Shown here: piece after piece, positions 1 through 63,200 of the stretch
Layout of the letters: each line of letters begins with the position of its first letter
How positions within the stretch are numbered: the first letter of the stretch is position 1
Assembly (NCBI GenBank): GCA_029564765.1
Contig: JAKQPK010000013.1
Coordinates: forward strand, 28,216-92,215
From: Candidatus Omnitrophota bacterium
Lineage (GTDB): Bacteria > Omnitrophota > Gorgyraeia > Zapsychrales > Aceulaceae
Length of the DNA stretch: 64,000 nt
Reading direction: 5' to 3'
The notes under the pieces: model-generated
The model's database searches: none
What the model saw: only the letters and a program-made list of their open reading frames with translations
What the model was told of the DNA's origin: nothing
Position numbers and translations under genes: made by a program

Positions 1-219
1 GGCGATGGTATCAAGGAAGAGGATATGGACAAGCTATTCCAGACATTCAGCCAATTGCAAAAAGGAAAAGAGCGCAAAACAGGTAGTACAGGGCTGGGTC
101 TTGCGATCTGCAAGAAGATCATTGAGCAGCACAGCGGAAAGATCTGGGTGGAGTCTGAGCCCGGCCGAGGCAGTCGATTTGCTTTCTTGTTACCGATCGA
201 GGAGCGGCGTAAACGCTAG
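1..219 (+). CDS. Sensor histidine kinase, C-terminal HATPase_c fragment; the gene starts upstream of the window
   Basis: Frame-1 translation ends [35 protein letters not shown], the G2 box and C-terminal motifs of HATPase_c. Two receiver genes follow directly downstream. Confidence 0.8.
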
Positions 220-55137: not shown

Positions 55138-55989
55138 ATGATGAACCCTAGACAAAAAATATTTTATGTCTTTTGCATGCTCTGCGCTTTGTCCTTTGCG
55201 CTTTTAACATCGCCGATGTCTCTTTGGGCGGCCAAGAAAGCAAAAAGCCATAAAGGTATTTCCGCGCGTTCTGTCATTTTCTCCAATAGCACAAAGGTCA
55301 AGCGGCTATACGGTAAAAATGTCAACAAGCGGGTCCCTCCAGCAAGTACCGTTAAGGTCATGACAGCCTTATTGGCCATGGAAAAGCTATCCTTGGATCA
55401 AACCGTGACTGCTAGCAGTAATGTTGTTTATCCCCAGCCAAGCAAGATCTATATTCAGCCAGGAGAGCAGTATGATGTCAAAAGCCTTTTGTACGCTATT
55501 TTGCTGAAATCTGCCAATGACGCGGCAGTTGCCTTAGCGGAAGCTGTGGCCGGCTCTGAGGAGAAATTTGTTGCGTTAATGAATAAAAAAGCCAAAGAAC
55601 TTGGATGTAAGAATACAAAGTTCTCCAACGCCCATGGGTTACCGAAGCCGACGACCCAATACACAACAGCGTATGATATGTACTTGATCTTTCGCGCGGC
55701 CTTGAAGCATCCTTTTTTTCGTGAGGCTATCGCGACAAAACAAAAAACCATCGCCTCAAAAGCTGGGCGCGAGATCAGCCTTAAAAGCCACAACCACATC
55801 CTGTCTTCTAAGTGGAGCCAGAAGATCTATGGGAAAACGGGTTATACGCATGCCGCGCGCTCTTGCTTTGTTGGGTATACTAAAAAAGGCGCGGACGATC
55901 TGATCATCGCGATCTTCGGTTGCGCAAGCGGTAAGCGCTGGAATGAGATCAAGCGTATCGTTTCGAAGTACGGCGGGATCGCTCTTTGA
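55138..55989 (+). CDS. D-alanyl-D-alanine carboxypeptidase (peptidase S11, PBP5/DacF-like) with signal peptide
   Basis: SxxK (ASTVK), SxN (SANDAA) and KTG (KTGYT) motifs. Confidence 0.85.
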   Translation: MMNPRQKIFYVFCMLCALSFALLTSPMSLWAAKKAKSHKGISARSVIFSNSTKVKRLYGKNVNKRVPPASTVKVMTALLAMEKLSLDQTVTASSNVVYPQPSKIYIQPGEQYDVKSLLYAILLKSANDAAVALAEAVAGSEEKFVALMNKKAKELGCKNTKFSNAHGLPKPTTQYTTAYDMYLIFRAALKHPFFREAIATKQKTIASKAGREISLKSHNHILSSKWSQKIYGKTGYTHAARSCFVGYTKKGADDLIIAIFGCASGKRWNEIKRIVSKYGGIAL

Positions 55990-56035
55990 TTTCGTTTCCA
56001 GATTTCCTTCATATTGTTTAGATGGATCTGAAACG

Positions 56036-56120
56036 TCTCGATTGCTCTGAAATTTTTTATTTAGGAGAATCGAGTCAGCTTATAACTTAGCGCTCCCTGA
56101 CGGTCGCGTAAGTTATGTGC
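56036..56120 (+). repeat. Composite two-hairpin intergenic element, copy 1
   Basis: Hairpin CUCGAUU...AAUCGAG followed by hairpin AUAACUUAGCG-CUCCCUGACGGU-CGCGUAAGUUAU. Confidence 0.55.
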
Positions 56121-56130
56121 CGCACATCAT

Positions 56131-56207
56131 TTCTCTCCGCTTAAGATCAGCGGAGTAAATTCGCACTTATAACTTAGCGCTCCCTGACGGTCGCGTAAGT
56201 TATGTGC
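56131..56207 (+). repeat. Composite two-hairpin intergenic element, copy 2 (second hairpin identical to copy 1 over 41 nt)
   Basis: Hairpin CUCCGC-UUAAGAUCA-GCGGAG, linker UAAAUUCG, then the 41-nt hairpin identical to that in copy 1. Confidence 0.6.
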
Positions 56208-56281
56208 TCATTTAAAATCGGTTGCCAAAAGTTCTTTTATACGGTAAAATCTGTTCTTCTCGCAAAGGAGAGAAGTCTCAT

Positions 56282-56461
56282 ATGAAGCAGGGAATAACAT
56301 TGTTGATCACTACAGGAATGATGCTTATTTTTGGGGTGATCATGATGGTACATTTGAATGCTTGGGAAAAAAGGATTAAGGAAGAAGTGTTAGCCCTTGC
56401 CAGACAAGAATGTCCGGACCTTGTGCAGCCGCAGAGCGATCCGGGAAAAGGAAAACTATGA
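56282..56461 (+). CDS. Small single-TM membrane protein
   Basis: RBS AAAGGAGAGAAG plus ATG at 56282. MKQGITLLITTGMMLIFGVIMMVHL TM helix. 59 aa. Confidence 0.45.
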   Translation: MKQGITLLITTGMMLIFGVIMMVHLNAWEKRIKEEVLALARQECPDLVQPQSDPGKGKL

Positions 56462-57228: not shown

Positions 57229-57247
57229 ATAAATAAACGAAAAGTTC

Positions 57248-57270
57248 GCCCCGCCGCAGGCGGGGCTCAT
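57248..57270 (+). promoter_or_regulatory. GC hairpin (GCCCCGCC-GCAG-GCGGGGC) after the DsbA-like gene and before the L27-like gene
   Basis: Perfect 8-bp stem. The downstream sequence UCAUUGAAGGAGG runs into the RBS rather than a U tract. Confidence 0.4.
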
Positions 57271-57285
57271 TGAAGGAGGATGTTT

Positions 57286-59433: not shown

Positions 59434-59515
59434 CTCCGAAACCTTCGCTGCGCTTAGGTTCGGAGTAAATTCGGCCATGTGACTTACGTTCACTGGCGTT
59501 CCGTAAGTCACGGCC
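59434..59515 (+). repeat. Composite two-hairpin intergenic element, copy 3 (glmS-rsmI spacer)
   Basis: Hairpin CUCCGAACC...GGUUCGGAG, the shared linker UAAAUUCG, then the hairpin GUGACUUACG-UUCACUGGCGUU-CCGUAAGUCAC. Stems covary with copies 1 and 2. Confidence 0.55.
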
Positions 59516-59521
59516 TCATTT

Positions 59522-60187
59522 ATGTTATACATCGTCTCCACCCCTATTGGCAATCTCAAGGATATCACGCTTCGCGCGATCGAAACGCTCAAAAGCGTGG
59601 ATCTGATCGCCGCCGAAGACACTCGTCACACACAAATTTTATTAAAAACTTACGATATCCATACTCCGTTAACAAGTTATTACGAACATAACGAGTTTTC
59701 AAAGTCAAAACATCTGCTTGAGCTCTTGCAGCAAGGAAAGAATGTGGCGGTCGTGACCGATGCCGGCACCCCGGGGATCAGCGATCCCGGCTACTTGCTG
59801 ATCAAGCTCGCGCAGGAAAACAATATCCCAACGACCGTTGTCCCTGGACCAACAGCCTTGGTCGCCGGGTTATCTTTATCGGGTGCCCCAGCGCACAGTT
59901 TTGTTTTTGAAGGGTTCTTGCCTGTCAAGTCTGGGGCACGCCAGAAGAAACTCGCGGATCTTAAAAGCGAAACAAGGACCATCATTTTTTATGAGGCCCC
60001 GCACAGGGTGCTGAAAACACTTCAAGATATACAAGATGTTTTAAATGACCCTGTTGTCATTTGCGCTCGCGAGATCACAAAGAAGTTTGAGGAAGTCAAA
60101 AAAGCCAAAGCAAGCGATCTCATCATCCACTTCTGCCAAAATCCTCCCAAGGGCGAATTCGTGATCTTGCTTCACCTTGCCCCTTAA
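59522..60187 (+). CDS. rsmI: 16S rRNA (cytidine1402-2'-O)-methyltransferase
   Basis: MLYIVSTPIGNLKDITLRAIETLKSVDLIAAEDTRHT... tetrapyrrole-methylase-like fold typical of RsmI. Confidence 0.9.
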   Translation: MLYIVSTPIGNLKDITLRAIETLKSVDLIAAEDTRHTQILLKTYDIHTPLTSYYEHNEFSKSKHLLELLQQGKNVAVVTDAGTPGISDPGYLLIKLAQENNIPTTVVPGPTALVAGLSLSGAPAHSFVFEGFLPVKSGARQKKLADLKSETRTIIFYEAPHRVLKTLQDIQDVLNDPVVICAREITKKFEEVKKAKASDLIIHFCQNPPKGEFVILLHLAP

Positions 60188-60283
60188 GGTAGCGCTTTCC
60201 CCAAAACCCCTTTAGCCCCTTTAATAAATATTAATATATTTTATACTTACTTTGTCGGGATAAAAAAAGGGGGAGGGTAAAAA

Positions 60284-63200
60284 GTGCTTTTAAAAGCCAC
60301 GGAAAAGCATTGTTGCTCATTTAAGGCAGTTATTGTATGTCTTTTAGTTTCATTTTCATTAATGAGCGTTGTGCCTGCCCAAGCATTAGCTCAGGGTGTT
60401 TTTAGCCTCCCCACTCCCGGCACGGTAGTCTCTTTAAGCCCAGGTTTTGTGCCTGTCATGCTTCGCGGCCTTCAGGTCAACTTAGCGAATCCTTTTCAGT
60501 TTGACTTTATCGTCGATTCTGGCAATACCGGCCTTGAGGGCGATGCATTAAAAGCAGAAAGCGAGAAGTTAGCTCGTTATTTTCTGGCCACACTGACCAC
60601 CCCGGAAGAAGACCTATGGGTCAATCTGTCTCCTTATGAGAACAATCGCGTTATCCCTGAGGAGCTTGGACAGACCCAGATGGGCCAGGAACTTCTTGCC
60701 CAAGATTATATTTTAAAGCAGATTACCGCCTCTTTGATCTTGCCAGACAGCAAGACCGGTAAGATTTTTTGGGATAAAGTTTACAAAAAGGCTTATGAGG
60801 AGTATGGAGCGACCAGTATTCCAACCGATACGTTTAATAAGGTATGGATCGTTCCAGAGCGTGCTGTTGTTTATGAGGATGTGGACAGGGCAGTCATTAC
60901 CGAGAGCCATCTGAAGGTCATGTTGGAAGAGGACTACCTTGCTGCGCAAGAAAGTCAAAAGTCAAAAGTCAAAAGTCAAAATGAAACCCAACCACTAAAT
61001 ACTAACGACCAAATACTAACAGCCAGCCCTCTTTCTTCGCAAATCGCCCGTGAAGTCCTGATTCCTCTTTTAGAAAAAGAAGTGAACGAAGGAAGAAATT
61101 TTGCTCAATTGCGCCAGATGTTCCACGCTATGGTTTTGGCAACTTGGTATAAGCAGGCATTAAAAGAGTCGATTATTAATAAGGTGTATGCGGATAAGAA
61201 GAAGGTAGAAGGATTAGAATTAGTCGATAGTCGTGAGCATATAGTATCTAGTAACGACCAACCACTAAATACTAACGACCATATACCAAATACTGTTCAA
61301 TCTATTTATGATCAATACCTTGCCGCGTATAAAAAAGGCGTTTGCGATCTTGTCAGGGTTGAGCAAGATCCGCATACTCACAAGCCTGTTGCGCGTAAGT
61401 ATTTTTCTGGAGGATTTGGAAGGCCTGGAGGGAAGCCTATTTCTTCAGCGATCACAAGAAAACCTTGGGCCGCTTTAACGAATAGCTTGGCAAGATTCAT
61501 TGCTGGAACAGCTTTTGCGGTGGCTATGGTGCTGGGAAGCCCTGATGCCGGCGCGGCAAGCAACTCCACAAGGCCATCGATGGAACAGGCGGAGGAGAAA
61601 GTAAAAACAGAAATTGAGAATAAAGAGCAAGATGAATTTGGTCAGGCCGTGGAAATGTTAAGAGATCGGGTCAAAGAATTTAGAGATCCTTCCTCTTGGA
61701 ATCAGGATTTTTTCAGCAAAGAAAATTTACTGGGAACAGTTATTGCAGGGCTTTTGATTGTTGCGGCAGCAGGCTTAGGCGGCAGCATATCTTTTCGCTC
61801 TGTTAGGAAAAGAGCGTTAAAAAGAATTACCCAAGACATTAAGGATGGGAATGTGAACCCGAAGATGTTCTTAAAAGACAATGCTTTGTTTTTGTCATCG
61901 GGAAGAGTGCAGATTGCTATCGACCGCGAGCAGATTCGCTTTGGGGATCTTTTCAAATTGAATATTAAGAACGACGATAGAAGATATTTTGTTTCTCTTC
62001 TCTGGCTTTTACCATTTTTTGTTAATAAAAACAATCCGGATTCGCCCCAGATGAAAGACTTTATTTGGAGTTGTTTTGGCCACTCCATGACATTGCCTCA
62101 AAAATTTTATCGACGGGATATAGAGCACCCTTTTTTTCAGCAGGAACCGTTGCTTGATAGAAACATAGTTCTTGATTTTTTTGTTGAGAAAATGATCGAG
62201 TACCCGGAACTGAGGACTGCGCTTCAGGAAAGATTCGCGGATATACGCCCCAATTTTTATTACCATACCGCTGGGAATCTTTTAGATACGTCAGATCGTG
62301 TTGTGGAGTTAGCCGCAATAGTCGCTCGGGAGATCAGAGAGGGTAAAAAGGATTACGAGCCAGACCTTTTATTTTTAGATTATCTATCTAAATTCTTTTA
62401 CCATAATGATCGCTCTCCTTTGATCCTTGGAACATTTTTTAAGGAGCTGTTCCCTCAAGACCAAGATGTAGTTGCAAAGCTTTTAAATAAATTAAGAGCT
62501 GAATATAAGTATAGTGATTTCCTTGGAGAAATCCCTGCAATTGGAATATTCGCTATAAAGAACAAAGAGATCATTGATAATAACGCATCATTGATAAAGG
62601 CGATTTTATCGCAAGAAAGCAATGTGCGAGGCATCTTGGGCTCTCATATTGCCTCCCACCATAATTTTACACAAAAAGAATTTAATAGTTTCTTGGAGGT
62701 CTTTCTTTTAAATCCTGAAGCGAATGATATTATTGCTGATGTTCTTTTTGGGTGGTATAAAAGACGCTCAGAAAGTTTTATCCTGCCGAAAAATCTTCAG
62801 GACGCAATGCAAGAGTTAAAATCCGGAGTGGCGCAGACAGAGCACCTCCTGGAATCGCCCCGATATCTTTTAGCAAACTATTTTCTTTTAGGCGATTTAA
62901 TAGCGGAAAATAAAAAAGAAGGCATGATCAGCGAGAGGGTCAATTTCTCCCAATTAAAAGAATTCATAAAAGATTTTTTTAAAGCGCAAAGTGATAATAT
63001 TTCTAGTTTTAATCGAATAGGAGAAAACGATCTTTTGAATTTAAGGGCGGTTGCTTATGAGGCTTTTTTGATGTGGGAGCAAATTATTAACGTACAGCAA
63101 AAGGCACAAGAATTAGATTTAGAAGTTGTGGTTGTCGCAAATCTTTCTTACGGGGGTGTTGCTTTAGCGCCCATCACAGATCAGAAAGGGAGCGAATATT

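Follow-up and report, generated by a model that had tools for sequence, protein, structure and literature searches.

A family of two-hairpin intergenic repeats, probably mobile DNA, in genomes of Omnitrophota

A reading made from the letters alone of a 64,000-nucleotide stretch of a Candidatus Omnitrophota genome (contig JAKQPK010000013.1 of assembly GCA_029564765.1; the whole stretch is called the window here) had pointed out intergenic elements made of two hairpins, two of them in tandem between dacC and dsbA and a third between glmS and rsmI. We found that these two-hairpin elements are real and that they belong to a previously undescribed repeat family, which is present in multiple copies in many Omnitrophota genomes. 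It turns over at orthologous junctions, forms tandem arrays, includes near-identical copies and nested modules, and leaves insertion footprints; together these show a duplicative DNA repeat, which is very probably mobile. We consider it probable, though by no means certain, that these are short, non-autonomous DNA repeats, so far seen only in Omnitrophota, that are copied in trans and of which the window copies are ordinary examples; the best explanation for the window copies is that they are members of a repeat family and not dedicated regulators of dsbA or rsmI. The family is best placed among the structured intergenic repeats, a known class, and comes from an uncultured phylum whose gene-expression signals and mobile DNA are essentially uncharted. 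Literature searches on Omnitrophota repeats returned no description of such a repeat.

Anatomy, covariation and distribution of the repeat

The full repeat unit, about 110 to 135 nucleotides (nt) long, consists of hairpin A with a CTCC...GGAG foot, an 8-nt linker TAAATTCG, hairpin B and an 8-nt tail CTCATTTA. Hairpin B is long (about 19 to 22 bp) and carries a bulge in the 5' arm, a 2x2 internal loop of pyrimidines that is fixed, and an apex that is free to vary. The shared linker had been recognized by the sequence-only reading and was common to the units of the family; that reading had missed the tail, which is conserved in the family alignment, and the base helix, in which UAAAU of the linker is complementary to AUUUA of the tail.

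All window copies lie on the plus strand. In copy 3, sequence and folding gave hairpin A at 59434-59465 (CTCCGAAACC...GGTTCGGAG), followed by the linker (59466-59473, read from the sequence), hairpin B at 59474-59514 (GGCC clamp, GTGACTTACG/CGTAAGTCAC) and the tail at 59515-59522, whose final A is the A of the rsmI ATG (59522-59524), with no Shine-Dalgarno (SD) sequence. The rsmI gene call begins at that ATG, and homologues of about 220 amino acids (aa) cover 98 to 100% of the query. Those RsmI homologues with a name are annotated as Candidatus Omnitrophica, Omnitrophota or Aceula. Copy 2 has hairpin A at 56135-56155 (CTCCGC TTAAGATCA GCGGAG, from sequence and fold, with the CTCC/GGAG foot common to the family), the linker at 56156-56163, with UAAAU able to pair with the tail AUUUA and compensatory changes in the alignments, hairpin B at 56163-56207 (GCAC/GTGC clamp, 2-nt bulge, ATAACTTA/TAAGTTAT core and variable apex, from model and fold) and the conserved tail at 56207-56214. 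The claim of three copies with one architecture thus held for copies 2 and 3, which are full; copy 1 is a partial unit with a different leading hairpin and no linker. Its hairpin B (56079-56120), with an incomplete base, was confirmed as an exact 42-nt copy of that of unit 2 (repeat family D13, 100% identity), and the two repeat with a period of 87. The hairpin in front of it (CTCGATT...AATCGAG, 56037-56074, read and folded) is not a canonical hairpin A, no linker follows it, and the same hairpin is carried by a relative with a single unit (L075). Between the two units lies the spacer CGCACATCATTTCT (56121-56134) with a degenerate tail, TCATTT, a form shared with other tandem junctions.

We built a covariance model, R1, from 42 units of relatives. 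Its scores were 81.5 bits for copy 3 (E 2e-18), 65.6 bits for copy 2 (E 3e-14) and 15.4 bits for the partial copy 1, and across the 64 kb no other site beyond these three copies exceeded 18 bits. When folded, each of the three copies beat all 200 shuffles on either strand, with z-scores of -3.4 to -6.6. A terminator scan gave no match at 56037-56214 or 59434-59522, where the tail has only three consecutive T, and no U tract follows any copy, in agreement with the earlier statement that these are not ordinary terminators.

The covariation first noticed between the copies (AUAA:UUAU versus GUGA:UCAC) was real and held in large alignments, in which both stems covary. In the 42-unit alignment of hairpin B, 97.6% of pair cells were paired and double changes were found at 12 of the 19 pairs, while shuffled alignments and slid registers all fell far short. 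Among 106 independent metagenome units, the share of paired cells was 97.5%, 16 of the 19 pairs had double changes, and double-change cells numbered 328 against 14 single-side (G-U) cells, out of 2011 cells. A separate count put G-U at about 1.5% of pairs on either strand. Such near-exclusive Watson-Crick changes would be easier to reconcile with a hairpin of DNA, or with both strands being constrained, than with a typical one-strand RNA motif. The core ACTTA/TAAGT at first seemed invariant because the first search had required ACTTA; in a sample selected by the flanks only, the core was also ATTTA/TAAAT or AGTTA/TAACT. Compensatory variants were found at three positions of the UAAAU/AUUUA base helix, too. 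What stayed constant in hairpin B was the 2x2 pyrimidine internal loop and the 5'-arm bulge, which is 2 nt in most units and has grown into a small hairpin in one subfamily. Hairpin A was far more variable in sequence than hairpin B, with compensatory changes at 17 of 18 pairs and a foot that alternates between CTCC/GGAG and TACA/TGTA. The apex of hairpin B could be as short as 4 nt or exceed 100 nt, and further hairpin modules were nested in the apex or in the linker. In L008 (7132-7287), L009 (215-332) and L071 (3968-4060), the apex holds a nested insert of about 50 to 100 nt consisting of two more conserved hairpins, one TTACCGC...GCGGTA and the other GC-rich; this insert looks like a second family of repeat modules.

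Beyond the window, the loci retrieved were 2 to 14 kb long, and 1.29 Mb of loci were covered by the transposase search described below. A scan of one genome per species with the pattern GGAGTAAATTCG-N8-ACTTA, in line with the search for linker plus ACTTA that the sequence-only reading had proposed, gave 69 loci, about 45 of them in Omnitrophota-type metagenome-assembled genomes (MAGs; 16 assemblies) and about 25 chance matches. Several assemblies yielded 5 to 15 loci each, and the extracted copies had the entire unit architecture in common. The covariance model, likewise proposed earlier, gave 68 matches in the Omnitrophota-type loci and none in the approximately 25 chance loci. It was also strand-specific, with 60 to 84 bits on the forward and 18 to 33 bits on the reverse strand, a difference carried by the bulge and the internal loop. 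A second scan, of metagenomes and with the flanks only (linker ... tail), gave 112 loci, and in the 100 of these searched with R1 there were 119 matches. Altogether, copies of the two-hairpin family were found in no fewer than 16 species genomes of Omnitrophota and on about 85 metagenome contigs; the case that only the window copies exist, that relatives are without them and that the stems do not covary, named in advance as what would speak against a family, is clearly contradicted. Pattern scans of viral contigs gave 0 and 2 matches, neither of the 2 being an element by R1, and a viral origin was rejected for want of any R1-supported element in viral contigs. The repeat matches no Rfam family: only two tRNAs reached the Rfam gathering score in the window, and permissive Rfam scans of 55950-56320 and of L024 gave chance-level miRNA, snoRNA and SAM matches far below threshold. 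As a combined model of sequence and structure, R1 marks gene boundaries in many Omnitrophota genomes.

Turnover at orthologous junctions and insertion footprints

The window matched contigs of MAG GCA_035358335.1 and of two JGI metagenomes (samples 3300010346 and 3300009675) at 100% identity, and the gene order from dacC to rsmI was kept in four relatives, in three of them together with bacA upstream. The dacC-dsbA junction has two units in the window and three in L001 and L002, whose flanks are 100% identical to the window, this difference in the number of 87-nt units being seen between short-read assemblies with identical flanks; contigs L003 and L004 end inside the tandem repeat. L075 (nucleotide identity to the window 92% on the glmS side and 83% on the rsmI side) has one unit at this junction, L076 a diverged pair, L077 none, with a promoter directly after the stop codon, and L078 none. 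At the glmS-rsmI junction, the element was found in the window, L001 and L002, and an unrelated spacer in each of L075, L076, L077 and L078, so that among the compared relatives it is limited to the window lineage. Similarity between L075 and the window ends at the glmS stop codon and restarts 3 nt before the rsmI ATG. A small cis-regulatory RNA serving these genes, another of the candidates raised at the outset, was not supported, because a close relative with 92% flank identity has an unrelated glmS-rsmI spacer. This spacer is wholly different in each lineage (L075 4884-5000, L076 4846-5000, L077 4838-5000, L078 4930-5000), and its versions are each repetitive, with, e.g., TTAGAATTTAGTATTTAGGG, CCAATGACCAAATTTCAATGACG and AGCTGTCAGCT motifs; it appears to be a replacement hot spot.

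Similar turnover was observed in the ilv operon. JAFGET has units at ilvD/ilvB, ilvB/ilvH and ilvH/ilvC and after ilvC, and JAGOIJ, whose ilv proteins are 75 to 86% identical to those of JAFGET, has one unit, at ilvD/ilvB only, with ilvB and ilvH overlapping as ATGA. The ilv units of CAZPSS are in the opposite orientation. In a species without the element between ilvH and ilvC, that spacer is filled by short tandem AGTATTGAG-type repeats (L067 1800-1860, minus strand). In the isolate JBDREX, more than 10 copies, spread over 6 contigs, have the same hairpin A and the same loops. Together with the variable tandem arrays, the many near-identical copies in some genomes and the few flanking direct repeats, copies that are present, absent or inverted at orthologous junctions make a repeat of the repetitive extragenic palindromic (REP) or miniature inverted-repeat transposable element (MITE) kind the best fit among the three candidates of the sequence-only reading. 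The family also accounts for contig breaks and hypervariable spacers in Omnitrophota assemblies.

As a separate observation, the first unit of arrays in one MAG has no hairpin A in front of it (L022 7927-7990, minus strand; L010 6075-6130; L051 7833-7890). It is preceded by GGGTTGAC repeats every 19 nt or so in L022, where TTGACG also lies 15 nt before TAAATT, and by an A-rich tract ending in GGGTTGATGGG in L010 and L051.

A minority of copies was flanked by direct repeats, of 18, 16, 14, 10, 7 and 7 bp; counting the non-tandem cases that scored at least 10, there were 3 versus 0.16 expected by chance. In L144 the direct repeat copies the first 14 nt of a tRNA gene, with the intact gene on one side of the unit and a relic on the other, and one unit in L069 interrupts a 3' fragment of tRNA-Phe. 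In the direct-repeat cases the junction at the tail was exact, while 4 to 9 variable bases preceded the foot of hairpin A (0 in one 7-bp case). After the tRNA-Phe fragment of L069, at 2960-2990, there is also a classical terminator of hairpin and T tract (GGGAGGCTATAAAAACCTCCCCTTTTT), and carriers of the repeat therefore use ordinary intrinsic terminators elsewhere.

No general fixed-length target duplication was found, the mean similarity of the two flanks being only slightly above that of shuffled pairs. Many left flanks end in TCATT(T)G or in TAG/TAA, and there was no single target sequence; TTTA as a fixed target shared with the tail was ruled out by empty sites and relic copies. L050, considered as a possible autonomous copy, proved to hold a truncated remnant. 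The GC skew here tracks the coding strand and was uninformative on any replication-strand bias.

Gene boundaries, proposed mechanism and alternative readings

We surveyed the context of 151 distinct units. Directly after the tail there was an SD sequence with a start codon within 30 nt in 34 units, an ATG at 0 to 2 nt in 33, the 3' end of a convergent open reading frame (ORF) in 19, another unit in tandem in 14, the 3' end of a convergent tRNA or tmRNA gene in 11, a sigma-70-like promoter match in 8 and the 5' end of a tRNA or tmRNA gene in the same direction in 5; the context was other or unknown in 27 and too close to a contig end in 1. The offset of the ATG from the tail was bimodal, at -1/0 in 31 cases or at 9 to 16 nt with an SD sequence. 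Among convergent ORFs, 21 of 25 stop at a TAA or TGA in the complement of the tail, TAAATGAG, some of them possibly being spurious antisense frames. The hairpin A side was looser, with the upstream stop codon 0 to 77 nt away; of 169 units, 39 had a TAG or TAA immediately before the hairpin A foot and another 4 had a TGA there. The observation that the copies share the orientation of the flanking genes stood for the window, and across the family it was a tendency of about 70:30 toward the downstream gene start. Units also occur within the S10 and ilv operons. These positions amount to a natural experiment, in which a structured insert of 120 nt directly adjoins start codons, stop codons and tRNA ends and leaves them unharmed.

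Conservation of the linker, hairpin B stem and tail across the phylum, together with the strand-specific bulge and internal loop, points to a conserved recognising factor. A trans-acting enzyme may copy and insert the unit by recognising the folded hairpin B with its conserved single-stranded flanks, and the recognised form would most likely be single-stranded DNA, because hairpin B pairs almost only by Watson-Crick. Only insertions that spare the neighbouring genes would survive, which in compact genomes would be those flush with gene boundaries. Since the unit lies in transcription units, its RNA would consist of two stable hairpins followed by an AU-rich tail, and could probably act as RNA punctuation, with the hairpins shielding RNA ends, the tail as a likely endonuclease site and, possibly, as a tolerated context for SD-less start codons. 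RNase processing or stability, the remaining candidate of the sequence-only reading, is plausible as such a putative effect at the RNA level.

Several observations weigh against a purely mobile repeat. Flanking duplication is absent from most copies, and where it occurs its length varies in a way that fits no standard bacterial transposition mode. No transposase or mobilising gene was found by tblastn with IS200 and IS608 TnpA queries against the 1.29 Mb of loci, which is a weak test. The orientation bias hints at a function at the site, starts are either flush with the tail or 9 to 16 nt away behind an SD sequence with almost none between, and at some orthologous sites (L011/L037, L044/L067) conservation is far higher in the hairpin B stem, linker and tail than in hairpin A. 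Mobility alone does not account for the flush position of the tail, the bimodal distances to the ATG or the orientation bias of 70:30. These features suggest either a strong filtering of insertions in very compact genomes, helped by duplications that rebuild interrupted gene ends, as in L144, or a role of the tail at the RNA level as a site of cleavage or initiation.

It could therefore be argued that the element is a functional RNA signal first, with each copy selected in place and multiplication secondary, acting as a processing or stability cassette, as a platform for SD-less initiation or as an antitermination module of the boxB-boxA type. We regard this as unlikely, while giving it real weight. 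Most of the 151 units have their tail directly at a functional boundary (33 ATG, 34 SD, 16 tRNA/tmRNA ends), the hairpin A side is much less strict than the tail side, and both the bimodal ATG spacing and the orientation toward the downstream gene start would be natural for such a signal, as would a position in the 5' untranslated region in L030, behind a sigma-70-like promoter upstream of hairpin A, and, on reading the sequence, in the leader of a tRNA in L031. Furthermore, a hairpin with CTCATTGA and AGGAGG upstream of rpmA is retained in three lineages, CTCATTKA precedes gene starts outside canonical units 7 times more often than permuted controls, and the orthologous hisS-aspS and ilvD-ilvB junctions combine a near-unchanged hairpin B stem, linker and tail with a diverged hairpin A. 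Against this, relatives express the same genes without the element (glmS-rsmI of L075-L078; ilvB-ilvH joined as ATGA in L067), about 30% of units are reversed, including one between the co-directional ilvD and ilvB in L074, and the promoter match after the tail in 8 cases places the element outside the downstream transcript in those cases. The scarcity of G-U pairs is unusual for a constraint on one RNA strand, and near-identical copies within one genome, loops included, speak for recent copying and not for old conserved sites. A split SD, in which hairpin B would bring the GGAG foot beside the AUG, was rejected, as copies with a TGTA foot also have flush SD-less ATGs. With respect to antitermination, boxA GCUCUUUAACAA lies next to a hairpin in rRNA leaders in the NusB/NusE-dependent boxB-boxA system; the tail GCUCAUUUA(A) resembles this boxA consensus without matching it, and there was no Omnitrophota rRNA operon among the loci.

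Single-stranded DNA would also be the substrate in a more specific version of the mobile reading, which we think quite unlikely, namely that the repeat derives from an IS200/IS605- or RAYT-type element, with hairpins A and B bound as single-stranded DNA by an HUH tyrosine transposase and UAAAU of the linker acting as a guide that pairs with the right-end cleavage site AUUUA. Two subterminal hairpins without terminal inverted repeats, covariation of hairpin B almost only by Watson-Crick changes, the strand specificity of the bulge and internal loop, a sequence 5' of the hairpin foot that complements the right end with compensatory changes at three positions, the many left flanks ending in TCATT(T)G, which resembles the right end, and the common tandem arrays are all consistent with it. 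IS200/IS605 elements are not known to make a target duplication; several copies here have flanking repeats of 7 to 18 bp, and there is no constant target sequence beside the left end. The guide geometry is unlike that of IS608, and no Y1 transposase was seen in the fetched loci, again a weak test.

A cassette of transcription signals, terminating the upstream gene, providing the downstream gene with a promoter, or both, is highly improbable. Such a cassette could explain why the element fills intergenic spacers and why reversed units directly follow the ends of tRNA, tmRNA and protein-coding genes, and the linker TAAATT and the hairpin B sequence TAAGTT resemble -10 hexamers, with repeated TTGAC motifs before the first JBDREX array units. 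The copies lack a U tract and any terminator-scan match, and a terminator would be polar within the S10 and ilv operons. With an apex of 4 to more than 100 nt, linker and tail do not keep the constant spacing that a promoter requires, and no -35 element was seen at a constant distance by reading; an internal promoter was rejected on these grounds. The promoter scan gave no site inside the window elements, and a sigma-54 site, considered by eye, had no -12 element. Good sigma-70-like matches were found outside the element, upstream of it in L030 and downstream in the window, L065 and L076. The match in the window (TTGCCA-17-TAAAAT, 56222-56250, plus strand, 10 of 12 positions) starts 8 nt past the tail of copy 2, and the same arrangement is found in L076, and in L077, which has no element at this junction.

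For the favoured reading of a DNA repeat copied in trans, the precise right end, the ragged left end (4 to 9 nt) and the variable target duplications (7 to 18 bp) led us to propose, as a long shot, a mode of movement undescribed in bacteria, in which an RNA or single-stranded intermediate would be primed at the target, as for short interspersed nuclear elements (SINEs), with the tail as a built-in processing or initiation site. If both parts were true, the repeat would be a self-spreading "punctuation mark" of operons, at whose end genes and tRNAs start. Should the tail be a site of RNA cleavage or initiation, or the duplications reflect a new mode of movement, the family would be of interest beyond this phylum.

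Relation to known repeats and neighbouring features

In kind, the repeat is closest to REP sequences and bacterial interspersed mosaic elements (BIMEs), BOX, mycobacterial interspersed repetitive units (MIRUs), Correia elements and palindromic elements derived from IS200/IS605, and it departs from each of them in the defining features compared below. Like the REP/BIME repeats of Enterobacteria and Pseudomonas (including REPINs, mobilised by RAYT), the units are short, structured, imperfect palindromes with many copies per genome that lie outside genes and inside transcription units, consist of mosaic modules, are often clustered and persist for long in a lineage, and the REP hairpins are believed to protect mRNA ends. 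In contrast to REP/BIME, the units are arranged head to tail and not as inverted pairs, and combine two unlike hairpins with a linker and a tail that are single-stranded and conserved. They also have no GTAG-type head, no RAYT gene was found in the 1.29 Mb of loci (a weak test), and the tail directly adjoins start codons and tRNA ends.

The BOX elements of Streptococcus pneumoniae (boxA-boxB-boxC) are likewise modular and gene-adjacent, with variable tandem internal modules and stable predicted folds, but they have no sequence relation to the repeat and occur in a narrow streptococcal group, whereas the repeat is found in many Omnitrophota species; we know of no flush relation to start codons described for BOX. 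MIRUs also lie between operon genes, mostly co-oriented with them, and touch neighbouring stop and start codons with their ends. Their tandem number varies between strains, which the one, two or three units seen here may parallel, the step from two to three being between short-read assemblies with identical flanks. They have been described with small translation-coupling ORFs, whereas the units here are built of stable hairpins, and in copy 3 (ATTTATGTT) no stop overlaps the rsmI ATG in any frame, which led us to reject a coupling ORF of the MIRU kind. Correia/NEMIS elements of Neisseria and ERIC sequences are small, non-autonomous and co-transcribed elements with long hairpins, which are RNase targets that alter mRNA stability; they have terminal inverted repeats and, for Correia, a TA duplication, whereas the ends here are unlike each other and the direct repeats, where seen, are of 7 to 18 bp.

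Elements associated with IS200/IS605-derived palindromes share subterminal hairpins, the lack of terminal inverted repeats, a strand-specific structure and possibly a pairing of guide and cleavage site, and differ in that for the repeat described here no transposase was found in the weak test above, some target duplications are present and there is no fixed target sequence. A classical MITE of the DDE type did not fit, as the left end, (TAG)CTCC..., and the right end, ...CTCATTTA, are not reverse complements and hence no terminal inverted repeats, and no target-site duplication of fixed length was found. In integrons, attC core sites (RYYYAAC ... GTTRRRY) flank mobile gene cassettes; the units here end in TAAATTCG and CTCATTTA, which are not R''/R' core sites, and their neighbours are housekeeping genes (glmS, rsmI, ilv and ribosomal protein genes).

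Upstream of rpmA (encoding L27), at 57241-57273 on the plus strand, the window contains a short variant consisting of AAAGTTCG, a 7-bp GC hairpin and CTCATTGA, followed by AGGAGG. It has no hairpin A and a weak R1 score (9.6 bits), and looks like a minimal relative of the family. The hairpin and its TCATTG/TCAGTG motif are retained in L075 and L076, and L077 keeps the hairpin and TCATTG, with a full element inserted between TCATTG and AAGGAGG.

A small hairpin with CTCATTTA (60316) and AAGG was also observed at 60280-60323, upstream of a very large ORF without a Pfam domain that starts near 60362 and runs past the end of the window (1733 aa in L001). Inside this ORF, CCAACCACTAAATACTAACGACC repeat units (family D7) at 60988-61289 probably represent a coding tandem repeat. 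Outside the window, a conserved GC-rich sequence that looks structured (TCGGGGCGACAGG...) was seen right after the tail in L040 (4709-4850) and L054 (5300-5463, minus strand), where we found no ORF, tRNA or tmRNA call or Rfam match. Finally, a basic small ORF (MGKRKRRGKL...) was flush with the tail in two different species (L019, about 2960-2995, and L177, about 40-80, minus strand) and may be an unannotated small protein gene.

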